Shown: in pieces, positions 18,718 through 41,425 of the stretch
Numbering within the stretch: the stretch's first letter is position 1
Layout of the letters: each line of letters begins with the position of its first letter
From: a virus
Length of the DNA: 64,000 bases
Reading direction: 5' to 3' (one strand)
IMG/VR virus record: IMGVR_UViG_3300034358_000044
Location: 1-64,000 of that record
Made by a program: the position numbers and the translations under genes
The notes under the pieces: model-generated
What the model saw: only the letters and a program-made list of their open reading frames with translations
Databases searched by the model: none
Told to the model about the DNA's origin: nothing

Positions 18718-19157
18718 GGGAGGTTCCTCAACTCCAGCTTCTTGGTGTTCTTGGTCACCCACTCGCTCTCGTTGAACCAGATGATCTTCGGAGCCGTGAC
18801 GATGCAGAACCCTCCACCGAACTCGTCAACTCTGGGCTTGCTGCAGGTGTCCGCCCAGCTCATGTGGAAGTAGCCCTTGGGGCAGAACTTCTTGAGATAG
18901 CTCTGCACGAAGTCGGCAATCTGCTCCACGTTGCCGGACTCTCCGCTGTCCCTGAACCAGACGTAGGGAGGCTGGATGATGTCTCCCAGGGTCTTCATGC
19001 CCGTGAGGCCGAAGACGGTCCAATCGTAGTCCGTCATGAGGTTGCCATCCTCATCCTCCGTAATCTTCAGGAGGTCGAGCTCCTTCTGGCACCACTCCGC
19101 TTCCCCGTGGTGTTGCAGCTTCAGTGCGAATGAGAACTGCCTGTAGTTGTTGGCCAC
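18714..19157 (-). CDS. Hypothetical protein
   Basis: 147 aa, codon bias. Confidence 0.8.
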   Translation of the reverse strand: MANNYRQFSFALKLQHHGEAEWCQKELDLLKITEDEDGNLMTDYDWTVFGLTGMKTLGDIIQPPYVWFRDSGESGNVEQIADFVQSYLKKFCPKGYFHMSWADTCSKPRVDEFGGGFCIVTAPKIIWFNESEWVTKNTKKLELRNLP

Positions 19158-19588
19158 TAGACCTCCACTTGCCGGCCGAATCGTTTGTTCCTGACAACGC
19201 TGGACACTTCCTTGGCCCTCTTCCTCTTCTTGAGAAGGAGGATCTCTTTGCGTCTCTCCTTCTCCGCGTCCATGTAGATCTTCCTGTTGTAGAGGTGGAA
19301 GAGCTCCTCCATGACGCGGAGGCCCGCCATCGTGATCTTGATGAGGGCGTACTTCTGGTCATTGACCTGCAGGTAGTCCATGACGTGGTTGATGCTGGGG
19401 GAGTGCGTGGTGTGCTTCTCCACTTCCGTCCTGCGGGGGCCGAGTCTCCTCTCGCAGAGCACCTCGTAGACGGCGTAGACGTCGAAGTCCTTGTGGAAGC
19501 GCCCATGGACCTCGTACCGGTCGAGCGCGACCTTGCTGACCTCTTTCCACCTGGTGGGGTATCGAGCCCTCTTCGCTTTCTTGGCCAT
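19157..19588 (-). CDS. Basic hypothetical protein ending in FGRQVEV
   Basis: 143 aa; carries the shared C-terminal motif. Confidence 0.8.
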   Translation of the reverse strand: MAKKAKRARYPTRWKEVSKVALDRYEVHGRFHKDFDVYAVYEVLCERRLGPRRTEVEKHTTHSPSINHVMDYLQVNDQKYALIKITMAGLRVMEELFHLYNRKIYMDAEKERRKEILLLKKRKRAKEVSSVVRNKRFGRQVEV

Positions 19589-19902
19589 CAGTCCGCCGTG
19601 AGGCTGAGGTCTTCGATCTCATCCAGAGCGACCGTCACCTCATCGCCGTAGTTCTTCTTGGCGAGGAAGAGCGGTTGGTTCGCCAGGGTGCCGTAGAGGA
19701 CACCGTCCTTGTCGCCAAGGATCTTCACCCAGATGTGCTCCCTCTGTGGCCAGTCCTTCTTCTTGTAGTTGACCCTGAACGCCTTCTTCACCCACTTCCC
19801 TTTGAAGAAGGAGAGGGGCTCGGAGGCGTACTTGGACTCGGGCTTGGGGGCGTGGTCGGCGCAGACGAACTGGAGGTTGTCGAGTTGCTTGCTGGAGGGC
19901 AT
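19588..19902 (-). CDS. DUF2314 (YegJ)-like protein
   Basis: EHIWV...GTLANQP...YGDEVTVALDEIED pattern. Confidence 0.6.
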   Translation of the reverse strand: MPSSKQLDNLQFVCADHAPKPESKYASEPLSFFKGKWVKKAFRVNYKKKDWPQREHIWVKILGDKDGVLYGTLANQPLFLAKKNYGDEVTVALDEIEDLSLTAD

Positions 19903-20228
19903 GGCGGTTCCATTGCCTTTCTGATGCGGGTTTCTTCAGCGATGACGCGCTTGTAGTCGGTGATGTTGATGGGGCGGCAGCTCGCGAATATGGGCATGCC
20001 GTTGGCGCTTCTTGGGAGTGCCTCTGTGATGTACTCGTAGAAGTGGGCAATCTGGTCCTTCACGAAGCCCTCGATGACTTCCTTGCTCACCATTGCCAAT
20101 GGGAGGAAGCACATCCTGACGTCTTCTACCCTTCGCAGCCGGTCGGACATGAAGACCTGGTTGGTCACCAGTTCCACCGCCAGCTTGTTGACTTCTGCAT
20201 CTGTCATCTTGGGTTCTGGATCCGTCAT
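19788..20228 (-). CDS. Hypothetical protein (Ser/Pro tail overprints next gene)
   Basis: Start MTDPEPK, ATGA overlap. Confidence 0.65.
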   Translation of the reverse strand: MTDPEPKMTDAEVNKLAVELVTNQVFMSDRLRRVEDVRMCFLPLAMVSKEVIEGFVKDQIAHFYEYITEALPRSANGMPIFASCRPINITDYKRVIAEETRIRKAMEPPCPPASNSTTSSSSAPTTPPSPSPSTPPSPSPSSKGSG

Positions 20229-20509
20229 GGTTTCCCCAGGTAGTCGTCGAACCAGAAGTCGTTGATTTCCAAGTCTTCGGGCATGGGCTTCTCTGACTCG
20301 AAGATGGCTGAGACATCGACCAGTCCGTGCCCAACATGGGCGTACATCGTGAAGCCGTCCGGCTCTTCGTCCGAGTCGCAGTTCTTGATGGTCAGGATGT
20401 GCTGCCACTTGTGCGCCGCGATGAGCTTCCGCTCCTTGGCCCTGTTGATTTCCTTGAAGGGGCCGTAGAGCTCGACGAGTTGCTTGTTGGTGAGCTTCTT
20501 GCTCGTCAT
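20225..20509 (-). CDS. Hypothetical protein
   Basis: MTSKKL start, GGAG RBS. Confidence 0.75.
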   Translation of the reverse strand: MTSKKLTNKQLVELYGPFKEINRAKERKLIAAHKWQHILTIKNCDSDEEPDGFTMYAHVGHGLVDVSAIFESEKPMPEDLEINDFWFDDYLGKP

Positions 20510-20700
20510 GTCTCCTCCCAGTCGATGTTCTTCAGGTCCACTGGGGCTACGCCTGCGGCTTTGCACTTGCCGCACTGGACTTCGACGACCCAGCCGACGA
20601 TGGCATCGTGGTAGAGGCTGTACCTGCCCGCTGTCGGGTAGATGTGGCCGGTGTGCTTGCACGTCTTGACGGGCTTCTTAGGCGGTTGTTTCGCTGACAT
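20506..20700 (-). CDS. Small Zn-binding hypothetical protein
   Basis: CKH...CGKC. Confidence 0.65.
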   Translation of the reverse strand: MSAKQPPKKPVKTCKHTGHIYPTAGRYSLYHDAIVGWVVEVQCGKCKAAGVAPVDLKNIDWEET

Positions 20701-20872
20701 CGTCGGCCTCGATGGTGGAGTCATCCACTCCGTTGTAGACCCAGACGACGTCACCCTTCTGTGCTTTCTCGACGGCGATGTCGGTCGCTTCTTCCGAGCT
20801 TTTCGCCTCCACCTCAACTGTCGCTTCGACGTTGCCGACCGCTGAGAGATAAACCTTGAACTTCTTCTTCAT
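20678..20872 (-). CDS. Small acidic beta-rich protein
   Basis: GGAGG RBS before MKKKFKVY. Confidence 0.7.
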   Translation of the reverse strand: MKKKFKVYLSAVGNVEATVEVEAKSSEEATDIAVEKAQKGDVVWVYNGVDDSTIEADDVSETTA

Positions 20873-20910
20873 GAGCACCTCCAGTGAAGGATACGATTTT
20901 ACGGCCATAT

Positions 20911-20922
20911 CCTTATGCCGAA
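20911..20922 (-). promoter_or_regulatory. Promoter motif TTCGGCATAAGG at strand-switch point
   Basis: Exact copy heading the 1-20.9 kb minus block. Confidence 0.75.
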
Positions 20923-20971
20923 GTACATGCGTAAGTTGACAAGTCGAAATCGACGTGCTTCTGTTCGCGCC

Positions 20972-21274
20972 ATGCAGACTGACTACGTCTCTGACGAGTC
21001 CGCAGCGCAAGCCAAGGCCTACGAGACGGAGCTCCGCAAGCTTCCGCCCGATGCCGGCATCCTCTTCATTGGGGTCAAGGCCGTTCCGTGCCGGGACGGG
21101 AAGAGCAAGTCCTTCGAGGTCAGGCTGGGGACTCACCGAGCGGTGGGACAGTCCGCTAGTGTGGCGCTGGTCAGCTACACCTTCCGTCACGAGATGCAGA
21201 GGGGCATCAAGTTTCTAGTCAGCGCCTACCAAGGCATTTCGGGAGCCGCACGTGCCGACCATGGTGATGCGTAG
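20972..21274 (+). CDS. Hypothetical protein
   Basis: MQTDYV start; first gene of plus block. Confidence 0.7.
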   Translation: MQTDYVSDESAAQAKAYETELRKLPPDAGILFIGVKAVPCRDGKSKSFEVRLGTHRAVGQSASVALVSYTFRHEMQRGIKFLVSAYQGISGAARADHGDA

Positions 21275-21467
21275 GTTGGTACGTCTTCGGCGCAAGAAGA
21301 TGACAGCGTCTGAGGCAGCCCGGAGGATGAAGGTGTCCAGGCAGCAGATCTTCAACATCGAGACGGAGTACCAAGGAGCCCCGAGTATCCTGACCGTGGA
21401 GCGTTACGCGAAGGCCATTGGGGCGAAGGTTGTTGTTCTTGACCGAGCCCACAAGAGCGGTACATAG
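21252..21467 (+). CDS. XRE/Cro-C1 helix-turn-helix regulator
   Basis: LRRKKMTASEAARRMKVSRQQIFNIE...PSILTVERYAKAIG. Confidence 0.85.
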   Translation: MPTMVMRRLVRLRRKKMTASEAARRMKVSRQQIFNIETEYQGAPSILTVERYAKAIGAKVVVLDRAHKSGT

Positions 21468-21494
21468 TCGCCGTACAGACAACGTACAGACACC

Positions 21495-21818
21495 ATGTCA
21501 GACCGAAATCCGATAGTCATCCCGAAGACTGCTGACGCTAGAAGGCGCTGCGCCAAATGTGGCAGCCTTGACTGGTACGGGCGCAACATCTCAGGAGCCG
21601 TCACCTTCAAGTGCAAATGCGGCTATGAGTGGTATGGGGGGCTCGCCCAGGTGCCGATGGATCCACTCGTACCACAGCCCCCTCTGGCTCCTCCCGATCC
21701 CGACATTCAGTTCGTTGAGAATTCGAGGGTCGAGGGTGGTGTAGAAGAGATTCGCAAGAAGCCCGACATGAGGACCGACTTCAGGAAGGGCGCCCCAATT
21801 CCAGGTGACGAGGAGTGA
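21495..21818 (+). CDS. Zn-ribbon protein
   Basis: CAKCG...CKCGYEW. Confidence 0.75.
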   Translation: MSDRNPIVIPKTADARRRCAKCGSLDWYGRNISGAVTFKCKCGYEWYGGLAQVPMDPLVPQPPLAPPDPDIQFVENSRVEGGVEEIRKKPDMRTDFRKGAPIPGDEE

Positions 21819-22681
21819 CAATGGCAGATGTGAGGGAGCAGGAAATCAAGGAGATCTCCTTTGGTCGAAAGGAGCTCGACCCTGAGGAAGAAGCAGCGTA
21901 CCGGGAGAAGATCGCTGCTGCCCGGAAGGGCGGCATTGGGGCACTGAAGGGTTCCACCCCCATCGGCCATGTGGAGCGTCCTCCCATCCCCGACCTCACC
22001 AGTCGGCGGTCGAAGGATGCCCCCTCCGGTCTCACTGCAGAGGGCGGAGTGGCTCCCAGGCCTCCAGGGTCGCCTGCCATCAGTTCGAGCACGGTCGCTC
22101 AACTGGAGGAGATCCAGAAGGTGCAGGCGAAGGAAGCCGTCATCAACGAAGAAGAGGTTAAGAAGGGGGCTGCGGAAGCCGCCAAGGAAGACCTCTTCGA
22201 CATGTTCGACTTCGCCGGCAACAACGAGGCGGAGCGCATCCTCAATAACAAGAAGCGGCGTAAGGAGGTTGAGGACCGCTGCGAGCCAATGAACTTCGAA
22301 GATCTCATCATGAAGGATGAGGTGCGGCAGACGGTGCCCATCATCCCAGGCAAGTTCGAGCCCAGGTTCCGTACTCTGAACCCAGAAGAGAGCCTCTTCC
22401 TCAAGCAGTTCCTGGCGAAGGACCCCTCCCCGAATGAAGCCTACTCGGTGGAGAAGTTCTCTCTCTGTCAGCTCACGTGCGCGCTGGTCTCCCTCAACGG
22501 GCAGGACTTCCCGGACCATCGCAAGCCGGACGGCACCCCGGACGAGGAGCTCTTCAAGATCAAGCTGAAGAGGCTGATGAAGAAGTCTGGGTACATCATC
22601 GCGGACCTGGCCATCAACTACTACTGGTTCGACATTCGAGTTCGGAAGCTCATCGCTCCGGACAGACTGGGAAATGGCTAG
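21815..22681 (+). CDS. Putative tail assembly chaperone (short form)
   Basis: Helical, TAC-like C-terminal half; ends LGNG* over slippery G GGA AAT. Confidence 0.65.
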   Translation: MTMADVREQEIKEISFGRKELDPEEEAAYREKIAAARKGGIGALKGSTPIGHVERPPIPDLTSRRSKDAPSGLTAEGGVAPRPPGSPAISSSTVAQLEEIQKVQAKEAVINEEEVKKGAAEAAKEDLFDMFDFAGNNEAERILNNKKRRKEVEDRCEPMNFEDLIMKDEVRQTVPIIPGKFEPRFRTLNPEESLFLKQFLAKDPSPNEAYSVEKFSLCQLTCALVSLNGQDFPDHRKPDGTPDEELFKIKLKRLMKKSGYIIADLAINYYWFDIRVRKLIAPDRLGNG

Positions 22682-23088
22682 ACACCGCTGAGGGGTGGGC
22701 TAGGGCGAACGTCCTCTACGACAAGGAAGATCGCGCTCCCAAAGCGGGAAGTTTGAGAGAAGCACTCTTCCTGCACGTTTGGCTCAAACGTCAGGAGCAG
22801 AAGGTAGCGGAGATGCGAATCCTCGCACAGGGGCTGGCGAATGGAGAGCTCGTAGGGAAGGCGTTCCAGGACTACGTCCAGACGGTGTACCCATTCATGA
22901 AGCAAGAGAAGGTAGCGTCGGACAAGGAGCTGATGAAGCGGGTCGAACAGGAAGTAGCAAAGGGCGTCATCACCTTCGCTCCGGCACCTACAAGATTCCT
23001 GGGAGATGCGGCCAAGAAGTACACGATGGCAGATGAAGACGTGAAGCGATTCAGGGATTCTGCTAGTAGACGGAAAGGTCTCAAATGA
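22669..23088 (+). CDS. -1 frameshift extension of the tail assembly chaperone
   Basis: Open -1 frame continues GKWLDTAEGW... from the heptamer; GC3-rich; no clear RBS and start seen at the junction. Confidence 0.65.
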   Translation, partial: GKWLDTAEGWARANVLYDKEDRAPKAGSLREALFLHVWLKRQEQKVAEMRILAQGLANGELVGKAFQDYVQTVYPFMKQEKVASDKELMKRVEQEVAKGVITFAPAPTRFLGDAAKKYTMADEDVKRFRDSASRRKGLK

Positions 23089-23387
23089 GTCTGATGCTCA
23101 CAAGGTTCTCGCAGGAAGTTGACGTGGGCTCGGGCTCCCTGGACGTCACGTTCTTCGCCATCTTCAAGTCGGAGGATGGACGCGAGATGAAGATGCCCAT
23201 CTCCGAGGAAGCCTCCAGGGCCATCATCGCCTTCTTCGCGGACACTCCCGTCAAGGAAACACACACCGCTCCAGCCCCAGAGGCAGATGCGACGGTCTTC
23301 GAGTCCGAGGACCACCAAGATGAGTCCTACCAGACAGATGAAGGGGAAGGCCTCATCGACAATGAGGAGGATGTTCCTTCCCTATGA
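23085..23387 (+). CDS. Acidic hypothetical protein
   Basis: 100 aa, ATGA overlap. Confidence 0.75.
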   Translation: MSLMLTRFSQEVDVGSGSLDVTFFAIFKSEDGREMKMPISEEASRAIIAFFADTPVKETHTAPAPEADATVFESEDHQDESYQTDEGEGLIDNEEDVPSL

Positions 23388-23842
23388 TCATCAACTCGCT
23401 CTGCAACAAGTGCTTCCAGCCCTTCAAGCTCCTGGTTCAGACAAGTGATGCAGGCTTGCTGAGTGAGGTGACACAGGATGATGGCCGGTCCTGCCTGTGT
23501 CCGCGCCTCTGCGGCGGGGTCATCAACCTCACGGGAGATGCTCATGGGCCTGAAGGAGTACATCTCCGAGAGCCTCTCGAAATCACTGCCGGGGAGCTCT
23601 ACCGTGCGGTCAACGGTCTCGGACTCCCAGACGAGATCCCAAAGGACGGGATTGTGGTAGCAGCTCTTCTCAAGTCCTATCCGGTCGAGGATGTCGTCAC
23701 TCATGAGTTCCGAGGAGGCCTCTACCTGGAAGAGCTTCGTCTCAAGGGCGGGGTCACCATCCATCTGACGTCGGGAGCGGTAGGAGCACGCATCTTGAAG
23801 ATCACGAAGGAGAAACCCAATGGGCCTGTCAATTCTGGCTGA
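23384..23842 (+). CDS. Cys-containing hypothetical protein
   Basis: CNKC...CLCPRLC. Confidence 0.8.
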   Translation: MIINSLCNKCFQPFKLLVQTSDAGLLSEVTQDDGRSCLCPRLCGGVINLTGDAHGPEGVHLREPLEITAGELYRAVNGLGLPDEIPKDGIVVAALLKSYPVEDVVTHEFRGGLYLEELRLKGGVTIHLTSGAVGARILKITKEKPNGPVNSG

Positions 23843-24143
23843 AGCTCTCGCTCGGATCGAACACAAGCTGGACAGCCTGCTTCGTCACAGCGGGACTCCG
23901 GTTCTCCCGATGCACTTCGTCGGAAACGTCTGCCCTGTGTGTAGTCAGATGGTGGACTACCAGATAGACATTCAGCATCAAGTCGTTGTCCGTCGATGTG
24001 GCTGCCGCACCGGGAAGGTTCCCTCGACGATCCCTCTCCTTCCCCTCTCACCCACCCCAGGAGCACCCAATGGCTACCCCTCTCCAGATGAGCCCGAGCG
24101 ACCTGAACCAGCCGAGGACAGTTCTCGGCGCAAAGCGCGTTGA
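23820..24143 (+). CDS. Zn-ribbon hypothetical protein
   Basis: CPVC...CGC; AGGAG RBS. Confidence 0.65.
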   Translation: MGLSILAEALARIEHKLDSLLRHSGTPVLPMHFVGNVCPVCSQMVDYQIDIQHQVVVRRCGCRTGKVPSTIPLLPLSPTPGAPNGYPSPDEPERPEPAEDSSRRKAR

Positions 24144-24339
24144 GATCGCGCTGGTGACGTACACCGACGAGACCAACACGCCCCAGACGCAGCTCGCCAT
24201 CATCGGTGAGAACAACGTCCACCTGCTGGAGGGCCGCGCCATGGGGCTCTCGAAGGTCACCACTCCGCAGGGCAACGCCTCCTCCTGGCTGCGTGATGCC
24301 ATCATGGCGAAGTTGGCTGCCGGCAAGGTGAAGAAGTAG
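24070..24339 (+). CDS. Hypothetical protein
   Basis: AGGAG RBS before MATPLQ. Confidence 0.75.
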   Translation: MATPLQMSPSDLNQPRTVLGAKRVEIALVTYTDETNTPQTQLAIIGENNVHLLEGRAMGLSKVTTPQGNASSWLRDAIMAKLAAGKVKK

Positions 24340-24708
24340 ATGTTCACCGCCGATCCTCACAACATCCGGCCGAAGAGGGATTGGGCCATCATCCTTCAGG
24401 ACCCCAGGAAGAGTGTGCTCTCTTCCGGCATCCTTCTGCCGATGGAGACGAACGACGAGAAGCTCCATGAGGGCTCTGGCATCGTCATCCGTCTCGGAGT
24501 TGGCCCCAAGGTGACTGGTACGAGTCTTCGTGAGGGAGACCGGGTTCTCTACCGGACCTATCTACGCCACGCCGTCACCATCGACTCTGACAAGAAGTGG
24601 TCAGACGGTTCGCGCATGGAGTTCTTCTTCATGGACGTCACCGACATTGCCGCAGTCATCAGTACTGATCTAGAAGTAGGCGCACTCTCTGAAAGGAAGC
24701 TCTCGTGA
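24340..24708 (+). CDS. groES: GroES/Cpn10-like co-chaperonin
   Basis: IRPKRDWAII...SSGILLP...GIVIRLGVG...LREGDRVLY. Confidence 0.8.
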   Translation: MFTADPHNIRPKRDWAIILQDPRKSVLSSGILLPMETNDEKLHEGSGIVIRLGVGPKVTGTSLREGDRVLYRTYLRHAVTIDSDKKWSDGSRMEFFFMDVTDIAAVISTDLEVGALSERKLS

Positions 24709-24968
24709 AGATGAGCATGTTGAAGCACCTCCCTACTGGGTGGAAGGACGAGGCCGACGCGATGGGCGAAGCACAGCTTCGAGCTGTCATCGTCGAAAGC
24801 TCGAACAACCTCCGCACCATCGACGATGAGATGGCGGAGAACGACGCCCTCCAGCGCCTGAAGACCAAGGTGAAGGACGCCTCTCAGGGGTACAACGACG
24901 CGAAGAAGGCCCAGAAGGCGAAGGTGGCCTACGCGCTGCACTGCTTGGAGCAGGCGGGGAAGATCTGA
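24705..24968 (+). CDS. Coiled-coil hypothetical protein
   Basis: 87 aa, operonic. Confidence 0.75.
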   Translation: MKMSMLKHLPTGWKDEADAMGEAQLRAVIVESSNNLRTIDDEMAENDALQRLKTKVKDASQGYNDAKKAQKAKVAYALHCLEQAGKI

Positions 24969-25606
24969 TGAAAGTCCTCACTCCAATCCTGGTGTTCTTC
25001 GGACGGCTGTTCTCGTTCTCCTACATGGGATCGGGGCTCTACAAGCGGTGGTCCTACGTCTACCGCTGGCTGTACGAGAGGAAGTACAAGGACGTGCAGC
25101 TCGCCACGTTCGACACCCTCCCCCGGCTCGCCACCTGGGTGAACCGGCAGAAGTGGAAGGCGGACTCCTGGAAGGAGATGTGGGACGCCATCAGCACCCC
25201 ACAGAAGGTTCAGGCCATCGGTCAGGACAAGGACGGAGACCACTTCATCGGGGACTGCGACGAATTCGCCATCTACAGCGTCGCTGCTATCCAGGGGAGT
25301 CTCGCTGCAGGCCTGATGAAGGGCGAGAACATCGCAGCCGCCTACATCCTCTCCGTCACCTGGTTCAACCCGACGAAGATGAAGACGCTCTTCGGCTTCG
25401 GTGGGCACAACGTGTGCCTCATTGAGTTCTCTGACATGGGGCCGAAGTACGCCTACATGGACTACTACCTGCCCTCGAAGAGAGCCGGGTCCATCGCGGA
25501 CATCGCTGAGGTGGTGCGCCAGAGGTACTCGGGCGAGGGTGTCATCCCGTTGGTGTGGCATGTCGCCAAGCTCGACCTCACTCCTGTGCAGACTCGCTGG
25601 GGATGA
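24968..25606 (+). CDS. Transglutaminase-like cysteine peptidase-fold protein
   Basis: GDCDEFA nucleophile motif and GGHNVC His; hydrophobic N-terminus. Confidence 0.7.
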   Translation: MKVLTPILVFFGRLFSFSYMGSGLYKRWSYVYRWLYERKYKDVQLATFDTLPRLATWVNRQKWKADSWKEMWDAISTPQKVQAIGQDKDGDHFIGDCDEFAIYSVAAIQGSLAAGLMKGENIAAAYILSVTWFNPTKMKTLFGFGGHNVCLIEFSDMGPKYAYMDYYLPSKRAGSIADIAEVVRQRYSGEGVIPLVWHVAKLDLTPVQTRWG

Positions 25607-25824
25607 CTGTCTCGTTCTTCAAGGCAACGACGCCAGATGGGCGGACAGTTGTCGAGGTCAAGGTCCCTGGAGACTCTGTCTCCGAGGTAGGGTTGGAGTT
25701 CTCCTGTTCCGTCGTCTTGGATGGACGGCTGCCGGCGTTGGAAGAGCTGGCGACGACGGACAAGCACGAAATGGTGCTGTGGGTGAAGAAGCAGATGAAG
25801 GAAGCCATGAGGAGATCTCGATGA
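25603..25824 (+). CDS. Hypothetical protein
   Basis: ATGA overlap. Confidence 0.65.
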   Translation: MTVSFFKATTPDGRTVVEVKVPGDSVSEVGLEFSCSVVLDGRLPALEELATTDKHEMVLWVKKQMKEAMRRSR

Positions 25825-33131: not shown

Positions 33132-33911
33132 GTGAGCGAGAACATCCCGCTGAACTCTGAAGCCGGCCAGCAGACTGTCGATGAGCTGATGGCCAAGATG
33201 ACCCCTGCCGACCAGGAGCTCTTCAAGAAGGCTCTTCAGGGCAAGACGCCCGTTCAGGTCGTGGTGGACCAGGATGGAACGGTCAGGCCGGCCTTCGAAG
33301 AGACTCCTGTCATCGACGCCGACCCGACGTCTCCTGCCGTGGAGCCTGTTCCTCTGGAGCCGGCACCGGAGAACGCCATCCCGGTTCAGAAGTTCCCCAA
33401 GGGTGCGGCCAAGCTGGAGGCCAAGAGGCAGCAGATTCTTCAGGACCGGATGCGCCGGCACATGGGCAGGGGTCTGAGCCAGGAGCAGGCGTGGCAGGCC
33501 ATCCAGAAGGAGGACTTCGACGCCCTCCCGATGGACAAGAAGTTCGCCCGGCTGGAGAACATGGTGTCGAACACCTTCCGCCAGCTGGCCCAGGAAATCG
33601 TCAACCTGGGGCAGGGGCATGCAGCGGTGGCCGACGCCTTCGACATCAACTACCGTGCGGTCCACAAGATCTTCGTCAAGCTGGGGGTGTCTCCTGAAGA
33701 GCAGCAGCTTCTCATTGCGGAGGCTCAAGGAGAGGTCGCTGAGATCCGGCGGCGCCAGCAGGAGGGACGTGCCGTTGCAGAGAAGGCTTTCAACGATGCA
33801 CAGGAGAAGCAGAGGGTCGAAGCCGAGCTCGCCTCCGCCGAGTCCCCCAACCAGGCTCCCTCCTCAGTCGGGGCGGAGCCTCCTCCGGAAGCTACGGTCT
33901 TCGGTGGGTAG
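33132..33911 (+). CDS. Coiled-coil hypothetical protein
   Basis: 259 aa, strong codon bias. Confidence 0.85.
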   Translation: MSENIPLNSEAGQQTVDELMAKMTPADQELFKKALQGKTPVQVVVDQDGTVRPAFEETPVIDADPTSPAVEPVPLEPAPENAIPVQKFPKGAAKLEAKRQQILQDRMRRHMGRGLSQEQAWQAIQKEDFDALPMDKKFARLENMVSNTFRQLAQEIVNLGQGHAAVADAFDINYRAVHKIFVKLGVSPEEQQLLIAEAQGEVAEIRRRQQEGRAVAEKAFNDAQEKQRVEAELASAESPNQAPSSVGAEPPPEATVFGG

Positions 33912-34125: not shown

Positions 34126-34133
34126 GGGCTAAC

Positions 34134-34160: not shown

Positions 34161-34162
34161 TG

Positions 34163-35287
34163 TTACTCGTCGAGCTCGGTGGAGACGACGACCTTCGTCC
34201 GCACCTTGACCTCGCGGAAGACACGGATGTCCTCTCTCTTCACCCCGACCACATCGACCAGGCGGTCGATGCTCTGGGAGAGATGCTCCTTGCTGGTGAA
34301 CTCCGGCTGGCCGCAACCGGGCCAGTAGAGCAGCATCGGGAGCGGCGTGACAGGGCCGACCACCGGGGGAACATACACCGGCACAGCCTGTGCTTCCTGC
34401 GGAACCAGTTTCATCTCTTCCTCTTCCTCTTCACGCTCTTGGGTTGCGAGACGCTTTCCTCGGTAGGGGAGCCCGCTGAGCTCCCTCACCTGTTTCATGA
34501 TGTCGAGGACGATACGCTGGTCGCGGCTGATGCTGAAAACTGACTGCAGCACCATAGATGCGTCCCAGGAGTTGGCCTCAGGATTCTTCAAGAAGAAGTC
34601 CTCCAGCCAGTGGTCCCGAACCTTTCGACCCTCTTCGGAGTCCTGAGACCCCTGAGCAACCTGCTCTGTCGTCGTGGTGGGGAGTGTGAGGGTCGAGAGC
34701 CTCTCAAGCACCTGCTGCTTGTAGTCTCTCACCAACTCGACCACCTTTGACTGCGGAGCCTCTGCAGACTTCAGGGCCTGCTGCTTGGCTTCTTCGGCCC
34801 TCTCCTTGGCCCACTGCTCCTCCTTCGCCTTGCTGCGTTCCAACTGCTCAGCCTCCCGCTCTTCCCGCACCTTCTTGCGCCGCTCGCGCTCCTCCTGATC
34901 TTCTTGGAGTTTCTCTGCCCCACCCTGCTGAAGGGTGACCCGAAGTGGGGTGGGGGCGGCCATCAACTTCTCTGACACCTTCTCCAAGACCCCATCGGTT
35001 GCTGCCTTCGCCCATTCCTTGGATGAGACTCCGAGTTGGGCCAATATGGCCCCTTCCCGAACCAGCTCGTCACTCGGGAACCCTTGAAGGGCGGTGTACG
35101 CGCCCTTCTTCAGTTGACGGCGGATGGCGACGAGTTCGTCCTTGTTTGCCGGGATTCCGTCCTTCAACAGCTCTCGGATGAGGGCGTTGATTCCGAGGTT
35201 GGGGTGTTTGACGATGTAGGACCTTATCTGTTGGACACGTTTCTCGTTGTCCTTGGTGATGTTCGTCATGTACTTCCGTGATGACAT
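34163..35287 (-). CDS. Coiled-coil protein with HTH-like segments
   Basis: 374 aa, charged central helix; directly under a promoter motif. Confidence 0.8.
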   Translation of the reverse strand: MSSRKYMTNITKDNEKRVQQIRSYIVKHPNLGINALIRELLKDGIPANKDELVAIRRQLKKGAYTALQGFPSDELVREGAILAQLGVSSKEWAKAATDGVLEKVSEKLMAAPTPLRVTLQQGGAEKLQEDQEERERRKKVREEREAEQLERSKAKEEQWAKERAEEAKQQALKSAEAPQSKVVELVRDYKQQVLERLSTLTLPTTTTEQVAQGSQDSEEGRKVRDHWLEDFFLKNPEANSWDASMVLQSVFSISRDQRIVLDIMKQVRELSGLPYRGKRLATQEREEEEEEMKLVPQEAQAVPVYVPPVVGPVTPLPMLLYWPGCGQPEFTSKEHLSQSIDRLVDVVGVKREDIRVFREVKVRTKVVVSTELDE

Positions 35288-35317
35288 GTTTTTCTCCTTA
35301 CCGTTGGTGAAGAGATT

Positions 35318-35349
35318 CAGCAGAGAGTCTGCTGTATCCTTATGCCGAA
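35318..35349 (-). promoter_or_regulatory. Promoter motif TTCGGCATAAGG (35338-35349) with leader hairpin (35318-35334)
   Basis: Exact motif; CAGCAGA-GAG-TCTGCTG. Confidence 0.75.
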
Positions 35350-35379
35350 ATGGAGGAGAGAATAACCAAGGGCTAAGAG

Positions 35380-35406
35380 GAGTCCCCCGGCTCTCGCCGG
35401 GGGCTC
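35380..35406 (-). terminator. Terminator with GAGA (GNRA) tetraloop
   Basis: GAGCCCCCGGC-GAGA-GCCGGGGGACTC on minus, after DUF3150-like gene. Confidence 0.75.
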
Positions 35407-35415
35407 TTGGTTCTC

Positions 35416-36489
35416 TTAGACCTCCAGGAATCGTGCGAAGCCCTTCGTCTTGGCGAGGGCAACCCGCCCAGCTTCTTCTGCAGTCTGCTCCAGTGCAAGG
35501 CTCCCGATGGAGTTCAGCAAGTTCTTGAACTCAGTCGTGGCGAAGCTGGTGCCATTGATGCTCTCCGAGGTGAGCTCGAAGTTGATGCTGCCGTCCGCAT
35601 TGCGACGGATGAAACGCTCTCGTGCATCATCCACCTGCTTCCTCCAGTCCGATGAACCGGTGAAATCGATGGCGTTGAAAGTCTCGAAGGCCTCGAAGAG
35701 AGGCCTCAGGTTCTTCGGGTTGAGCTTGCCCTGCTTCTCCAGCATGTTCTTCGCCTGGGCAGCAGCCTCCCCGAGTGCGCGGTGCATGTCGGAGGTGGCA
35801 GTCCTCACCCAGCTCTGCAGGTCCGCCCTGAGGGCTTCCCGTGCAGCCAGCAGCTCATCCTGTTGCAGGGTGTTGAGCTCTTCCAGCCCCTCCACTGCGC
35901 TCACCTTGAACATCCTCCAGGTGAAGCGGAACATCTGCGGGAGCTCATCCACGGGTGGGTAGAGCTTCCGGTGCTGCAGCTTCTGCATCTCCAGCCACTC
36001 CTCCAGCTCCTTCTGCCTCTCCGCCCTCTGGGAACTCACTGGGGTGCCTGGCCCCTTGGCCAGTTCCCGCATCATCAGGTCCTCGCTCTGGGAGTCGAGG
36101 ATGGAGAGCTGACGGGCCTTGAGCTCGGGGTAGTTGTCCACCAGGTCCTGCACTGCGCTGTTCCAGTCCCTCTGGAGGCTCCTCAGGCGCACCAGGAGGT
36201 CCGGCAGGGCACGGAAGTACACGAACCTGGCCCCGGACAGGGGGAATTCCAGGGAACGACCAGCCAGGGCCGTACGAGCCAGCCCCTCCAGCGTGACGAG
36301 CCGGCCCATCGCTTCCTTGGGGAGCAGCTTCTTGTGTCCCAGATAGATGGCGTCGTCGTTGATGCTGCCCTCCAACAACACGTCGTTCGACCTCAACTTC
36401 TTCTGGAAGGTAGGCTTGCCCACGAAGAGGTCGAACAGGGTCCCCTTGTCGAAGAGGATTTCAGTCGGTTGAGACTCTTGAGTCGTCAT
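35416..36489 (-). CDS. DUF3150-like protein
   Basis: KKLR..D, LG.K, DLVDNY, P..DE...F.F.W..F.V pattern; ends FARFLEV; start MTTQES with GGAG RBS. Confidence 0.65.
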   Translation of the reverse strand: MTTQESQPTEILFDKGTLFDLFVGKPTFQKKLRSNDVLLEGSINDDAIYLGHKKLLPKEAMGRLVTLEGLARTALAGRSLEFPLSGARFVYFRALPDLLVRLRSLQRDWNSAVQDLVDNYPELKARQLSILDSQSEDLMMRELAKGPGTPVSSQRAERQKELEEWLEMQKLQHRKLYPPVDELPQMFRFTWRMFKVSAVEGLEELNTLQQDELLAAREALRADLQSWVRTATSDMHRALGEAAAQAKNMLEKQGKLNPKNLRPLFEAFETFNAIDFTGSSDWRKQVDDARERFIRRNADGSINFELTSESINGTSFATTEFKNLLNSIGSLALEQTAEEAGRVALAKTKGFARFLEV

Positions 36490-36506
36490 TGATACTCCAA
36501 AGAGAA

Positions 36507-36539
36507 AGCCCCCACACAGCACGAGGCCGTGTGGGGGCT
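36507..36539 (-). terminator. Terminator/attenuator hairpin inside AAA operon
   Basis: AGCCCCCACAC/GTGTGGGGGCT 11-bp stem followed by TTTCTCTTT on minus. Confidence 0.7.
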
Positions 36540-36553
36540 GATGGGAGGTGGAC

Positions 36554-36763
36554 TCAGTTGCCGGTCTTCAGCTTGTCCTTGACGACTTCCTTGTCGAAGA
36601 ACTCCGGCTTCTTCTTCCTGCTGGTGACGTCGCCGCCGAGAGCCTCCTCGATGGACTTGGTGATGTCGGTGCAGACGGAGCCCTTGGCTCCATCGACCTC
36701 GATCTTCACGTCGGCCGCCCCGGGGGGAATCAACAGCGTGACGGTGTGGTAGTTGTTTGCCAT
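36554..36763 (-). CDS. DUF2997-family protein
   Basis: VKIEVDGAKGSVCTDITKSIEEALGG...KKPEFF. Confidence 0.8.
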   Translation of the reverse strand: MANNYHTVTLLIPPGAADVKIEVDGAKGSVCTDITKSIEEALGGDVTSRKKKPEFFDKEVVKDKLKTGN

Positions 36764-36765
36764 GG

Positions 36766-37191
36766 TCAGTACTCCACCACTCGGTTGAACTTGATCTTCG
36801 TGTCGGACTGCTTGACCTTCACCTTGCCTGGGCTGGTAGTCGATGCAGCGGAGGCGGGGACGGAAGGCTGAAGGTTGAACTCCTTCACCTCGAACGTTTC
36901 CCCGTTACGCCAGGACTTCAGAATCTCCGGCACATCACCTTGGACGGTGTCGGTGTGCTTGCAGCGACGCGACTGCCCCTTCTTCACGAAGCGCCAGCCG
37001 GGGCAGTTGCAGCTCACGGTGCCGTCCTGGTTGAGCTGTGCGACGTAGTCGAACATCACGCCGCCAGCCAGTGGGGTCTTGCTGGACTTGAAGCCCCACG
37101 TGAAGACCGGGGTCTTGTCCTCTGCCTTCTTCGGTGCCTTGATGCGTGCCATGTAGAGTTTCCTTCTTGGGCGTTGCAGTGGTTGGAACAT
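36766..37191 (-). CDS. SWIM zinc-finger protein
   Basis: VSCNCPGW...RRCKH; ends FNRVVEY; TGATG coupling. Confidence 0.8.
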   Translation of the reverse strand: MFQPLQRPRRKLYMARIKAPKKAEDKTPVFTWGFKSSKTPLAGGVMFDYVAQLNQDGTVSCNCPGWRFVKKGQSRRCKHTDTVQGDVPEILKSWRNGETFEVKEFNLQPSVPASAASTTSPGKVKVKQSDTKIKFNRVVEY

Positions 37192-37607
37192 CAGCCGTAC
37201 TTGGTCGCCACGAGCTTGACGACGCCGTCCTTCATCACTTCGCGCTTCAGGGTGTAGCCCTGGGCCTTCAACTTCTTCGAGGCCACGCGCTCGGCGTAGT
37301 CCTGGGCGATGCGGTTCTGGCTCTCGACGGGGAAGTCGGTCGGGTCGGCGTACAGGTTGTACGTCCCGTCCTCCTGCCTCTCGTAGCCGATGTCGTTCCA
37401 GCCGTAGTTGTGGAACGTCTTCTTCACGGCGTCCTTGCGCACGACGATATGCGCCTTCTTGGCGGCCGACCGGTCGTAGCCCTCCATCCTGACAGGGGTG
37501 TCGTGGACTTCGACCGAGTTCTCCCCGAAGACCTGCCTCAGGGAGTTGATGAGCTCGGTCTCGGACTTCTGGAGGAACTTCGGCTTCAATTCAGTGAGGT
37601 GTGACAT
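37191..37607 (-). CDS. DUF1257 (Ycf35)-family protein
   Basis: MSHLTE...NDIGYERQEDGTYNLYAD...QDYA...QGY...KLV. Confidence 0.8.
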   Translation of the reverse strand: MSHLTELKPKFLQKSETELINSLRQVFGENSVEVHDTPVRMEGYDRSAAKKAHIVVRKDAVKKTFHNYGWNDIGYERQEDGTYNLYADPTDFPVESQNRIAQDYAERVASKKLKAQGYTLKREVMKDGVVKLVATKYG

Positions 37608-37648
37608 GGGTTCTCCTTGAGGCGAGTTGTACCAGACGGGTCTGACAT

Positions 37649-39283
37649 TCAGACCTGAACGGAGCGTCCAGAGGCGGAAGGCGGAGGGACGGCCACCTCG
37701 GGGGTGTTGGCCGGGCGGGTACGGCGCTCGCACCAACGACGGATGGCGTCGATCTTCTCCTTCATCGTCTTGGACAGGGGGTTGGTGCTGTCGAAGCTGT
37801 GCTGCAGGTCGAAGTCGTTGAGGTCCTTCTCCCCATCGAATGCTGCGTACATGGCGTCGTTGATGGCTGCCTCGATCTCTGCCCCGGTGAAGCCTTCGGT
37901 GGTCTCCCCAGCGAAGTGGTCGAGCTTGATCTTCCCGCTCATGATGAGGTGACCACGGTTCTTCTTCTTGATGTGAATCTCCAGGATTTCCTTCCGCTCA
38001 GCCTGGTTGGGGAGATCCACCGAGAACATCTCGTCGAAGCGGCCCTTCCGAAGGAGCTCGGGAGGGATGCCGGTGACGTCGTTGGCCGTGGCGAACACGA
38101 ACACCGGGCTCTTCTTCTCCTGCATCCAGGTGAGGATGGTACCCATCACGCGGGCTCCCACACCAGAGTCCAGGTTGCCTGCCCCGCTGCCGGCAGTGCC
38201 CTTCTCGATTTCGTCCACCCACAGGATGCAGGGGCTGATGGTCTCTGCCACCTGCAGGGCGTTGCGGATGTTGGCCTCTGACTGCCCCACCAGGCTCCCG
38301 AACATCTTGCCCATGTCGAGGCGCAGGAGGGGCATGGCGAGCTCACTGGAGGCAGCCTTGGCCGTCAGGGACTTCCCGCAGCCGGGAGGCCCCACGAGGA
38401 TGATGCCCTTCGGAGCAGGCAGCCCGAAGTCCTTGGCCTTCTGGGTGAAGGCGTTCTTCCGCTTGGAGAGCCAGCTCTTGAGGTTCTGCAGGCCTCCGAC
38501 GTCCTTCAGGCCCGAGGGGGAGACCGGGATGTACTCCAGCAACCCCGTCTTCTTCAGCGCCTGGCACTTCTCCTCCATGACGATGCGGGGGTCCCAGATG
38601 TCCTTGCTCTTGGCGATGCGAGGACGGATGAGGGAGAGCGACAGTGCGTTCTCAGCCTCGCTGGTGGTGAGACCCAAGGCCGCCTCGATGAGCTCCTCCT
38701 TGCGCCCCTCGGAGGGCACCATGTCCCCCTTGAGCTGAGAGCCCTCGATGATGCCGTTCAGCACGTCGTGGAGCTGCTGCTCTCCGGGGAGCTGCGTCTC
38801 CACCAGGGCGAACTCCTTCTCCAGCTCCATCGGCAGCTTGGAGACCGGGGTGAGGACGACCAGCATGCGCTGCGTCATCTTGTACTCCGGGATGATGTCC
38901 AGCAGCAGCGACTGCACCAACGGGTCATCCAGGAAGTGGTGGAAGAGGCGCAGCACCACGATGGACTTGCTGGGGATGACGTACCGCTTGTCCTTCGCCT
39001 TCGGATCCACCACGCCGGTGAGGGCGTTGAGCAACCCAGGTGGGAGCTCGGTGTCCGCGATGGGGTCCTTCTTGCCGTCCTCCAGGATGCCCTTGCCGAA
39101 GGTCCAGGTGAACAGCTTGCGGTCCAGCTCGTGGGCCGCAGACTGAATCTCCTTCTGGCTCCTCATGTCCTCGGCGGACACGAGGTAGAGCGCGGCGTAG
39201 CCGGCCCGAGCCTTCTCGAAGATGGTCCTGGCGGTTGCTGGCTTCTCTTCCTTCTTCAGCGTGTCCTTCTTCTCATCAGCCAT
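37649..39283 (-). CDS. Ycf46-like AAA+ ATPase (degenerate N-terminal AAA + active AAA)
   Basis: VGGLQNLKSWL, GLPAPKGIILVGPPGCGKS, ILWVDEIEK, ATAN...PPELLRKGRFDE. Confidence 0.9.
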   Translation of the reverse strand: MADEKKDTLKKEEKPATARTIFEKARAGYAALYLVSAEDMRSQKEIQSAAHELDRKLFTWTFGKGILEDGKKDPIADTELPPGLLNALTGVVDPKAKDKRYVIPSKSIVVLRLFHHFLDDPLVQSLLLDIIPEYKMTQRMLVVLTPVSKLPMELEKEFALVETQLPGEQQLHDVLNGIIEGSQLKGDMVPSEGRKEELIEAALGLTTSEAENALSLSLIRPRIAKSKDIWDPRIVMEEKCQALKKTGLLEYIPVSPSGLKDVGGLQNLKSWLSKRKNAFTQKAKDFGLPAPKGIILVGPPGCGKSLTAKAASSELAMPLLRLDMGKMFGSLVGQSEANIRNALQVAETISPCILWVDEIEKGTAGSGAGNLDSGVGARVMGTILTWMQEKKSPVFVFATANDVTGIPPELLRKGRFDEMFSVDLPNQAERKEILEIHIKKKNRGHLIMSGKIKLDHFAGETTEGFTGAEIEAAINDAMYAAFDGEKDLNDFDLQHSFDSTNPLSKTMKEKIDAIRRWCERRTRPANTPEVAVPPPSASGRSVQV

Positions 39284-39611
39284 TGCGGAGCTCCCAGAAG
39301 AATCTGACTTCGAGTTCCAACGCTTCCTTGCGGGTCTTGAAGAAGTGCAAGGCGTCGGTGCGGTTGCAGTAGAAAGCAGTGATGTTACCCTTCGTCTCGG
39401 ACCTGATGGCGAGAGTGCGGTCCTTCACTGACCGAACGACCCAGCCCTGCATGCCCTCCCAATCGGACCACTCCTCCCACTCCACGTCAGAGACGCGGCA
39501 AGAGCGAGTCACATCGGCTCCGATGGTTTCAGCGAACGCCTCGATGCCCTCTTGGTAGATGGTCTCGATGGTTCCGTCCGCCCCTATCTTCAGGTCGAAT
39601 TCTTGTTTCAT
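39276..39611 (-). CDS. Hypothetical protein (I..DGT..TIY.E...R.S.VE family) heading the AAA module
   Basis: Pattern recalled from proteins neighbouring DUF1257/DUF2997/AAA in bacteria. Confidence 0.7.
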   Translation of the reverse strand: MKQEFDLKIGADGTIETIYQEGIEAFAETIGADVTRSCRVSDVEWEEWSDWEGMQGWVVRSVKDRTLAIRSETKGNITAFYCNRTDALHFFKTRKEALELEVRFFWELRNG

Positions 39612-39707
39612 AGCCGCCTCGGTTTCCACCTGTAGAGGCACGCGGCCATCGCGGTCAGGTCATTCAACGGCTTCCCGCAAGTTTCACACAAGCGGTCGTC
39701 GAAGTAG

Positions 39708-40292
39708 CTACTTCCAGGTGATGTGGGGGAGCTCGATGCTGGGCTTTCCGGCGTAGCCGACTTCCCAGATGAAGCATCCGTACTCGTTGGTGTCATTGAC
39801 AGCCTTTGCTCCTTTCACGAAGCTGGGACGTCCCACAATGGGGATGACCCATCTGAGCTGGCCCTGGTTCCAGAGGGTCGCAGCTCGGGCCTTGCCACCG
39901 AAGAAGTTCATCTTCAAGAGGAAGGCTATGTGACTGCCGGGGAGAAGATACTCAAGTCCAGCGAAGATGTGATCCTCAGCCAGACTGAATGGTGGGTTGC
40001 CTACTACGAGGGTCGGCCCCTCCACCTTGTACTGCTTGACCCATTGGACCCAATCGGCCTTGTGGACGTCATCAGCGCCAGCTTTATGGAGCGCCTTCAC
40101 ACTTGGATGAGTGTCGATGGCGATGAGCGGAGGTAAGCTCCAGAGCTGCCTCAAGGGTCGTACGAAGACCCCAGTTCCGGCAGACGGCTCAATGACTTCG
40201 AAGTGCCCTATGGGCAACAGCTCCGAGAGTCTCTTGCAGATGGCTTCAGCTAGTGCTGGTGGCGTCGGGTAGTTGTCAACCCGTGCGCCCAT
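39708..40292 (-). CDS. DNA N6-adenine methyltransferase
   Basis: DNYPTP, VIEPSAGTGVF (SAM motif), VVGNPPF (catalytic). Confidence 0.88.
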   Translation of the reverse strand: MGARVDNYPTPPALAEAICKRLSELLPIGHFEVIEPSAGTGVFVRPLRQLWSLPPLIAIDTHPSVKALHKAGADDVHKADWVQWVKQYKVEGPTLVVGNPPFSLAEDHIFAGLEYLLPGSHIAFLLKMNFFGGKARAATLWNQGQLRWVIPIVGRPSFVKGAKAVNDTNEYGCFIWEVGYAGKPSIELPHITWK

Positions 40293-40725
40293 TTCTACCT
40301 CTTGTCATCTTTGGTGGTGGGGGTGGGATTACCAACCCGGTGGACTTCTTTGCAGGCCTGCGACGCATCGAAACTGCCTTCTCGAACCAGCGAATCTTCC
40401 TGGCCCGGATGTCGATGACCTTGAAGGACGAGCGCCAGTCAGGGCACTGGATGTCGTACCTGCGGTCTGGGCACATCTCGTGGGCGATGACGAACTCGTC
40501 CTTGATGGCTACCCGGCTGTCATCGGTGTTGTCGTCCTTGTAGTAGACGAGAGTCGATGCCCCGCACCCGTGGCAGCAGAGCTCGATCTTCCCGTAGCCC
40601 AGCTCCTCGTACTCCGTGGTGTCCGTCATGTAGTGCAGGTGAATCTGGGGTGCCTTGGTGATGGTGTCGATGGCGAACAGGCCCAGGTGTGACGTGTGTC
40701 CGCAGCCTAGAACGGTCGCGCTCAT
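40276..40725 (-). CDS. Cys-rich hypothetical protein
   Basis: 149 aa, AGGAG RBS. Confidence 0.75.
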   Translation of the reverse strand: MSATVLGCGHTSHLGLFAIDTITKAPQIHLHYMTDTTEYEELGYGKIELCCHGCGASTLVYYKDDNTDDSRVAIKDEFVIAHEMCPDRRYDIQCPDWRSSFKVIDIRARKIRWFEKAVSMRRRPAKKSTGLVIPPPPPKMTRGRNGRTG

Positions 40726-40753
40726 TGGTGCTCCTCAGTCGAGTTGGGCTGAT

Positions 40754-41425
40754 TCATTCTGGCTCATCATCCCCTATTTCGACGTGTCTGCGAAACGTAA
40801 TCGTGTCGTTCTTCTTGGGTGATTCTTTCGGTGGAGGAGGCTTCCGTACAGGTCGTACAGGCTCTCCCCTCCATACTGGAGCGGGTCGGTTCGCCTTGTC
40901 CTGCAGGAGGCCCATCTCGATCTCCATGGCGAGGTTCCAAATCTCTCGTGGGAGGGAAAGTTGGTAGACCCCTTTGCCAGTCTGCACAGCTTTCTGCTGG
41001 GCATAGCGGACACACGACGCGGTCCCTCCGCTGTTCTGACCGTCCCACACCGCAAGAAGAGCATCGCTGTGGTCTACCATCCATGCGTTGCGGTCGTGGA
41101 GAAGCTGGGGGCTGTAGTATCCCTCACTGAGAGTCACGACGCTGGCTGCCTCTTGCAGGAGCATGTTGTAGTGCTGTCTGGATCTCATGGGCCACTTCGA
41201 GTCGTAGCCCTCGAAAGGAACGATGGCGTCGAATGGTATCTTCATCCTGATGCAGAGGGAGGCGACCCATTGGTCAGTGCCAAGAGCCATTCCAGTGAGT
41301 ACCTTGTCGATCTTCAGGACACCGAAGGACTCCTCCAGCTTCTGCATCACCGCGTTGTAGATAGGATTCGGAATGTTGTAGCCACCGAGCCGAGAAGGCC
41401 GATGGCCGGTGACTGCGAGGATCAT
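40754..41425 (-). CDS. YspA/DUF1273-like SLOG-family protein
   Basis: AVTGHRP, GMALGTDQW, RNAWMVDHSDALLAVWDG..SGGT. Confidence 0.88.
   Translation of the reverse strand: MILAVTGHRPSRLGGYNIPNPIYNAVMQKLEESFGVLKIDKVLTGMALGTDQWVASLCIRMKIPFDAIVPFEGYDSKWPMRSRQHYNMLLQEAASVVTLSEGYYSPQLLHDRNAWMVDHSDALLAVWDGQNSGGTASCVRYAQQKAVQTGKGVYQLSLPREIWNLAMEIEMGLLQDKANRPAPVWRGEPVRPVRKPPPPKESPKKNDTITFRRHVEIGDDEPE

Follow-up and report, generated by a model that had tools for sequence, protein, structure and literature searches.

A phage gene run whose products share a C-terminal heptapeptide

The window analysed here is the first 64 kb (64,000 nucleotides) of the single-contig virus record IMGVR_UViG_3300034358_000044 (195,735 bp), and it contains a run of nine co-directional genes, several of whose products end in variants of one short peptide. 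Among the 202 genes called genome-wide with a codon-usage model, this run encodes YpsA, an unknown protein, a methyltransferase-like protein, a small conserved protein, an AAA+ ATPase, DUF1257, a SWIM-like protein, DUF2997 and DUF3150, and a DNA ligase and a class II ribonucleotide reductase are encoded close by upstream. The DUF1257, DUF2997 and ATPase genes are adjacent on a shared strand both here and in relatives. A preliminary description of the window had reported a C-terminal heptapeptide, F-x-R-x-[VL]-E-[VIY], on five otherwise unrelated proteins, and all five tails were located as described, in the genes at 19157, 35416, 36766 and 37649 and at 40775-40795 in YpsA (Table 1). That account had placed three carriers in one operon; the co-directional run holds four. 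With one further carrier outside the window, six unrelated phage proteins, a p97-like ATPase among them, share this tail type.

Several details of the gene models were revised. A flexible linker rich in Lys, Pro or Ser had been described before most tails, which holds for four of the five, the exception being DUF3150, whose tail begins a few residues after a helix. The start of the DUF3150 gene, earlier set at 36522, is most likely 36489. The zinc-finger carrier had been called a SWIM protein, and its CxC...CxH pattern is present; we name it SWIM-like only, because that pattern stands alone and the Pfam score (PF04434, E 0.085, 12.9 bits) falls below the curated cut-off of 19.6 bits. An internal Met may be the true start of this gene.

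Table 1. Features of the gene run and carriers of the C-terminal heptapeptide (aa, amino acids)
Feature	Coordinates	Strand	Length	Tail (position)	Basis and remarks
ORFan, Lys/Arg-rich	19157..19588	-	143 aa	FGRQVEV (19160-19180)	Translation
G+C-rich hairpin	35383..35404 (approximate)	-			Read from sequence; directly after DUF3150 stop codon; likely terminator closing the nine-gene cluster
DUF3150-like protein	35416..36489	-	357 aa	FARFLEV (35419-35439)	Pfam PF11348, E 2.7e-6
DUF2997 protein	36554..36763	-	69 aa		Pfam PF11211, E 3e-12; candidate receptor part
SWIM-like Zn-finger protein	36766..37191	-	141 aa	FNRVVEY (36769-36789)	Tail after Ser/Pro/Lys-rich linker
DUF1257 (Ycf35-like) protein	37191..37607	-	138 aa		Pfam PF06868, E 1e-8; leading receptor candidate
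Ycf46-type p97-like AAA+ ATPase	37649..39283	-	544 aa	SGRSVQV (37652-37672)	Tail after Pro-rich linker
Small conserved protein	39276..39641	-	121 aa		Tail-less; 8-nt overlap with ATPase start
YpsA/YoqJ SLOG protein	40754..41425	-	223 aa	FRRHVEI (40775-40795)	Pfam PF06908, E 9e-23; tail after Pro/Lys-rich linker and followed by acidic GDDEPE
Sixth carrier, outside the window	189972-190640 (genome positions)			Ends YGRVLEP	

The heptapeptide is non-random and conserved at the peptide level

The strict motif occurs four times in the 202 called proteins, each time within six residues of the C-terminus and never elsewhere. In 200 residue shuffles the mean number of strict matches was 0.15 anywhere in the proteins and 0.005 near the C-terminus, which settles in favor of the motif the shuffled-null comparison that the preliminary description had proposed. 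No match was found at the ends of 3,521 non-coding open reading frames (ORFs) from the whole genome.

A DNA-level origin was also considered, since GAGGT in the Glu-Val codons looks like a Shine-Dalgarno sequence and two carrier genes run directly up to the one that follows. Across the five copies the Arg codons are CGG, CGA, CGA, CGC and AGA, the position-5 codons are GTG, CTG, GTG, GTT and GTC, and the spacing from carrier to next gene ranges from overlap up to 128 nt. Because the codons differ and the distance to the next gene varies, the tail is a peptide motif and not a DNA repeat or ribosome-binding site, and a repeat or Shine-Dalgarno by-product was ruled out. With the peptide also kept over hundreds of homologues, chance resemblance, or a by-product of DNA signals at gene ends such as ribosome-binding sites, terminators or repeats, has a negligible probability.

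Conservation in orthologues, on which the earlier claim depended, was found in the closest complete relative (G001, 196,807 bp), in seven further loci of this family of ~200-kb phages, where the same genes carry the same tail pattern, and in DUF3150 homologues. Across 91 orthologue pairs with G001 (median 47% identity) most C-termini are unconserved, yet the tail is kept on DUF3150 (YKRTVTVD), SWIM-like (YGRVIELD), the ATPase (TGRAIEV) and YpsA (YKRIVDLDD). The segment FPRFIEV, 15 residues before the end of the G001 DNA ligase, is a conserved ligase segment in all relatives and was not counted as a tail. The SWIM-like genes of eight relatives (G001, L025, L107-L112) encode the tail [FY]-x-R-x-[VIL]-[ED]-hydrophobic or something close to it, one having Ile where the acid is expected, and zero to two residues follow. 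Orthologous ATPases end in TGRAIEV, TGRSVQV, GRAIEA, GRVLEA or GRNVEA.

DUF3150 homologues at 40-78% identity gave the largest sample. All 119 have x-x-R-x-hydrophobic within the last 12 residues, with Arg in 119/119, F or Y at position 1 in 114/119, V, I, L or M at position 5 in 119/119 and E or D at position 6 in 114/119; one or two residues follow the motif in 42 of them. Among 84 YpsA/YoqJ homologues, the 27 in which a low-complexity linker leads to the motif and an acidic end are long forms (median 256 aa), and the 57 with neither linker nor tail are short forms (median 167 aa). Nearly all YpsA tails continue for one to six mostly acidic residues beyond the motif. Every long-form contig inspected has the AAA+/DUF2997 module a few kb away; two of these contigs have an annotated DUF1257, where the others have a small gene without annotation. 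The sixth carrier has 16 detectable homologues, of which 14 end in R-x-[VIL]-E-P or something close to it. ORF 19157 matches no Pfam or PHROG family, has no homologue in a set of 5.8 billion clusters and lacks an orthologue in G001. As the YpsA long forms and this ORFan show, the tail is gained together with its linker.

Since 66% of the residues after the motif are Asp or Glu, the motif is always followed by negative charge, whether the terminal carboxylate or an acidic side chain. The nearest annotated phage, Rhizobium phage RHph_I4 (34% identity), has the AAA+/DUF1257/DUF2997 trio and no clear tail of this type. These results show that the heptapeptide is non-random and conserved as a peptide.

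The tail is ancestral to Ycf46-type ATPases

The ATPase belongs to Pfam AAA (PF00004, E 7e-29) and PHROG 8638 (E 8e-134), and homologues at 40-52% identity cover its full length. It is a classical-clade AAA ATPase and fits the Ycf46 type in size (about 500-560 aa) and in having a non-catalytic half at the N-terminus. Its catalytic half is closest to the D2 domain of p97/Cdc48 in a PDB sequence search (E 6e-58). Foldseek aligned the whole chain of an AlphaFold2 model (predicted local distance difference test, pLDDT, 88.8) to the D1-D2 tandem of p97, Cdc48, NVL and Rix7, and because the alignment spans the tandem, the N-terminal half is a degenerate AAA-like (D1-like) domain preceding an active D2. 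Residues 525-544 have a pLDDT of 56-59 and no secondary structure in the monomer, as expected for a tail that binds something else. Self-docking of the tail does not appear in this model, which is blind to contacts between subunits.

The preliminary description had treated SGRSVQV as a variant and the tail as a phage-specific targeting system. Comparison with two sets of ATPase homologues, 80 metagenome loci at about 40% identity and 80 loci from one genome per species, reversed both points. Many of the homologous ATPases end in GGR-x-[VIL]-D-[FI], DLRQIEL, ERSIDI, ERKLEL (Myxococcota), GRQLDI (Verrucomicrobiota) or GGRMLDY (a Ruminococcus), and cyanobacterial Ycf46 ends in AEYQR[ML]EF, which is one residue shorter between the Arg and the acid. 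The pattern that we propose, R-x-hydrophobic-[DEQ]-hydrophobic at the C-terminus, describes SGRSVQV and most homologues with an adjacent DUF1257 gene. The ATPase tail is thus the prototype, and an aromatic residue at position 1 is what the other carriers have in addition; R-x-hydrophobic-[DE]-hydrophobic is ancestral to the Ycf46-type, p97-like ATPases of many phyla. It is found in cyanobacteria, Myxococcota, Verrucomicrobiota, Firmicutes and others, on partners as well as on ATPases.

In some ATPase clades the chain stops directly after the last helix, without a tail. Other clades (L002, L064, L079, L082, L083, L085, L087, L088, L091, L096; L003, L006-L008) have different conserved tails, either N-P-F-[IV] or an acidic run then Leu (EEEL), and in L006-L008 several neighboring proteins likewise have acidic-hydrophobic ends. 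Tail-based docking may be general in this ATPase family, with clade-specific codes.

Neighbors share the tail, which is statistically tied to DUF1257

Tail-sharing between the ATPase and its neighbors extends well beyond this phage. The metagenome loci contain 4,247 ORFs with a length of 50 aa or more; 27 match the tail pattern, and nearly all of these are ATPases or their same-strand neighbors. ComEA-like helix-hairpin-helix proteins encoded on the same strand end in the ATPase's own tail in L067, L080, L094 (two), L095 and L098; further same-strand examples are DUF6744 in L041, DUF3150 and an 85-aa protein in L105, and others in L144, L180 and L191. Within these bacterial loci even the type of acid agrees, Asp occurring with Asp. 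The ATPase and its operon partners therefore share a tail in independent lineages.

The relation of the tail to DUF1257 was examined on species-representative contigs with at least 1.5 kb of downstream sequence, scoring a DUF1257 gene within 4 kb and leaving the counts uncorrected for phylogeny. Tail and DUF1257 occurred together in 38 loci, the tail only in 1, DUF1257 only in 8 and neither in 25 (Fisher p 2e-11). With the cyanobacterial clade removed the counts were 9, 1, 8 and 25 (p 3e-4), showing that the tail is statistically tied to an adjacent DUF1257 gene. In one clade DUF1257 had seemed to be missing, but a divergent DUF1257-like gene is present there, its product extended by a hydrophobic segment at the N-terminus (hhalign probability 90%). 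DUF2997 adjoins the ATPase in most tail-bearing loci outside cyanobacteria.

The AlphaFold2 model of DUF1257 has a pLDDT of 87.8. Foldseek against the PDB returned nothing at E <= 0.001, a PDB sequence search gave 0 matches, and look-ups in the ESM Atlas returned DUF1257 and DUF3150 clusters only. A complex prediction of DUF1257 with DUF2997 and the last 34 residues of the SWIM-like protein, run without controls, scored 0.00 and counts neither way.

Both small proteins have conserved ends of their own. Across 21 DUF1257 sequences the N-terminal Met-Ser-His is near-invariant (Met and Ser invariant, His in at least 90%), and this extreme N-terminus may be a functional site. The C-termini of DUF2997 proteins (36554-36763; L011, L106-L112, L079, L087, L095) follow a hydrophobic-x-hydrophobic-G pattern and then G, K, R, N or H, as in KLKTGN, VTIGRK and LKVGGK, placed after a variable spacer. 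This pattern may be a second docking peptide of the same system.

A candidate docking tag and its alternatives

Ycf46, Ycf35 (DUF1257) and DUF2997 occur widely, in large phages and many bacterial phyla as well as in cyanobacteria and red-lineage plastids, and to our knowledge no mechanism has been described for them. The reading we favor, at somewhat better than even probability, is that the heptapeptide is a short linear docking motif that tethers the ATPase and its partners to one receptor in the AAA+/DUF1257/DUF2997 core, because the residue alternation, the flexible linkers, the gain of tail with linker, the sharing between motor and neighbors and the tie to DUF1257 all fit together under it. 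Most likely, the tail is an address tag marking the partners of an unstudied protein-remodelling machine. The preliminary description had similarly proposed a docking tag common to ATPase and partners, and had named DUF1257 or DUF2997 as a plausible hub; conservation and the excess over shuffles uphold this core of the proposal, of which three points were corrected.

In the mechanism we propose, a tail of consensus [FY]-x-R-x-[VIL]-[ED]-[VILY], either ending the protein or trailed by a few acidic residues, would be a partner-borne copy of the ATPase's own G-R-x-hydrophobic-[EQD]-hydrophobic tail. Alternation of positions 1, 3, 5 and 7 would give a beta strand offering one face (aromatic, Arg, hydrophobic, hydrophobic) to the sheet or groove of its binding partner. 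Carried on a flexible linker, the tail would tether the ATPase to a receptor site that it shares with a variable set of partners, here DUF3150, the SWIM-like zinc finger, YpsA-SLOG, ORFan 19157 and the product of gene 189972. The best receptor candidate is DUF1257, alone or together with DUF2997, and on this one platform the partners could be assembled with the ATPase or compete with it. What we infer is binding by the tail, the identity of the receptor and the role of the machine. A functional shared docking motif is very likely and a receptor within the module (the ATPase itself, or DUF1257 alone or with DUF2997) is likely, while DUF1257/DUF2997 specifically stands at roughly even odds.

Several points weigh against this proposal. 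The association between tail and DUF1257 is confounded by phylogeny, a few large clades supplying most of the counts, and binding of the tail to the ATPase itself, were it limited to systems with DUF1257, would produce the same association. Similarity of DUF1257 to peptide-binding platforms is weak, with VIA-align Z scores of 6.1 (KA1 domain) and 5.8 (AP-2 appendage) that lie within the common range of the tool. The DUF3150 tail follows its helix with almost no linker and could partly be a structural strand of its own fold. The cyanobacterial tail Y-x-R-[ML]-E-F is one residue shorter between Arg and acid, so the register is not the same in all lineages.

The chief alternative, to which we give about one chance in five, is that the ATPase itself reads the tail, through its degenerate D1-like half or its central pore, as an adaptor or substrate tag like the SspB tail on ClpX or an ssrA-type tag. 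The ATPase's own, weaker tail would then be an autoinhibitory or ring-stabilising pseudo-ligand displaced by partner tails, and the missing position-1 aromatic fits such a weaker competitor. The ATPase is also the sole component found in every locus, a contact in trans would be invisible in the monomer model, and p97-type ATPases bind many short motifs via non-catalytic domains. Set against this, homologues with no nearby DUF1257 or DUF2997 are also tail-less, which is unexpected for pure self-contacts of the ATPase, and an unfoldase bearing its own recognition tag risks engaging itself. That the tail is instead a recognition or modification site, with the Asp/Glu or the C-terminus modified or trimmed and the ATPase unfolding tagged proteins for the enzyme, is improbable. 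Bacterial modules often have a radical-SAM gene beside the tail-bearing protein (Fer4_12/Radical_SAM in L080 and L094), as that explanation would have it, yet the phage genome, with six tails, has no radical-SAM gene in a search whose control was positive in 14/14 genomes. Cyanobacterial loci likewise have no radical-SAM gene within 4 kb of the ATPase, and the ATPase would be a substrate of its own pathway.

Docking of phage proteins on a host factor, such as a protease, a sliding clamp or a PDZ protein, has a lower probability still, and the host-factor hub that the preliminary description had also allowed for is unlikely. The last three residues do look like class II PDZ ligands (hydrophobic-x-hydrophobic at the C-terminus), and an ORFan and a distant gene carry the tail too. 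The same tail, however, occurs on chromosomal ATPases and their neighbors in unrelated phyla, where it tracks the DUF1257 gene adjoining the ATPase. A free C-terminus, which a class II PDZ ligand requires, is dispensable, given the residues beyond the motif in DUF3150 and in nearly all YpsA tails. The phage genome has no match to PDZ_2, the one PDZ model searched. No proteasome subunit (PF00227) was found in the phage genome, with a search control positive in 10/14 genomes; the host could still have a proteasome of its own.

If the docking tag is real, sharing of the tail by the ATPase and its neighbors is a testable handle, as it predicts binders, supplies a peptide for pull-downs and structures and enables genome-wide searches for partners. 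In this phage the tail links a DNA-metabolism cluster (YpsA-SLOG, SWIM-like and DUF3150, near DNA ligase and ribonucleotide reductase) to a p97-like motor, which hints that a segregase may act on proteins bound to DNA in the course of infection. A role of the module on DNA-bound proteins is only suggested by the kinds of partner (SLOG, helix-hairpin-helix, zinc finger) and by the neighboring DNA ligase, ribonucleotide reductase and methyltransferase-like genes. A broader extension, possible but on balance doubtful, is that R-x-hydrophobic-[DE]-hydrophobic is a universal portable tag of Ycf46-type machines from cyanobacteria and plastids to large phages, with DUF1257 and DUF2997 forming a platform whose equivalent pockets would hold ATPase and partner tails alike, much as HbYX tails are held by the proteasome alpha ring. 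The partner set of the machine could then be read from the C-termini of any genome, and new partners would arise by adding a linker and the tag.

Relation to known tail-docking systems

Mpa, an ATPase, and the unrelated Bpa share a C-terminal GQYL that docks both on the 20S proteasome, and Bpa was discovered by a proteome search with the tail of Mpa (PMC4254994). In the HbYX/GQYL activators (Mpa/ARC, Bpa, PAN, Rpt subunits, Blm10, Cdc48), as here, one short tail recurs on an AAA+ ATPase and on proteins unrelated to it, carried on a flexible linker that, unlike the tail, is not conserved; there, all dock on one ring-shaped hub. The motif here differs in its Arg and acid within a seven-residue alternation and in its tolerance of extra acidic residues, and Tyr is never penultimate, unlike in hydrophobic-Tyr-X, the tails ending in VEV, LEV, VEY and VQV.

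The cyanobacterial and plastid Ycf46, Ycf35 (DUF1257) and DUF2997 proteins are of the same families with the same adjacency, a Ycf46 gene followed by DUF1257, and have the related tail given above. No tail-bearing neighbors were seen in cyanobacterial Ycf46 loci, whereas the phage module adds DUF3150, SWIM-like and YpsA. Likeness to p97/Cdc48 lies in the alignment of the whole chain to D1-D2 and in a disordered C-terminal extension with a conserved short motif, although the ATPase here has a degenerate first half and lacks the p97 N domain, and its motif is unrelated to the p97 tail. Many p97 cofactors use short motifs, the same logic as proposed here, and we know of no PUB or PUL domain partner for this ATPase. 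The SspB tail on the ClpX N-domain is likewise a C-terminal peptide on a flexible linker that tethers a partner to an AAA+ machine, but ClpX does not bear the peptide itself and the ATPase here has no ClpX-type zinc-binding N-domain. We found no paper on a C-terminal motif in Ycf46, Ycf35/DUF1257, DUF2997 or DUF3150 proteins. Shared C-terminal docking tails around an AAA+ machine are a known arrangement, and what is new is the motif, the system and its breadth.

Further observations on the phage family

The small protein encoded just before the ATPase is confined to this phage lineage: G001 and L025 have orthologues, and L106-L112 have likely counterparts in the equivalent place. The methyltransferase-like gene that separates YpsA from this gene and the ATPase (39708-40292, minus strand, 194 aa) has an NPPF motif typical of N6-adenine/N4-cytosine methyltransferases. 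Pfam gave no match for it at E <= 0.01, and L025 (71% identity) and L108 have it too. In L109 (6925-9994), L111 (6785-10004) and the contig of P0131, rIIA-like (HATPase_c_3) and rIIB-like genes lie between DUF2997 and DUF3150, and L109 and L110 encode a protein of ~890 aa with major-vault-protein shoulder and repeat domains. The ATPase gene is split in two relatives (the contig of P0013; L012, 9893-11332 and 12243-12944), in one of which a 422-aa AAA piece and a 158-aa lid piece are separated by an HNH endonuclease gene, which suggests a homing element or intron inside the gene.

Other conserved terminal peptides occur in the same phages. A 100-aa protein without a Pfam family (23085-23387, plus strand) ends in an acidic run then V-P-S-L (EEDVPSL), in the style of the acidic tail of single-stranded DNA-binding proteins; the same tail ends its orthologues in G001, L107, L108, L110 and L111, in which the remaining C-terminal region diverges. 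A third conserved tail, A-T-V-F-G-G, stands at the very end of another protein without a Pfam family (33132-33911, plus strand), behind a variable stretch rich in Pro and Glu; G001, L106-L110 and L112 have it too, slightly altered. Two G001 proteins (L011, 15068-15976 and 16541-17317, both minus strand) share a leader, x-F-[LS]-x-E-L-x-K-I-A, near the N-terminus. Several peptide tags seem to be in use by this phage family.

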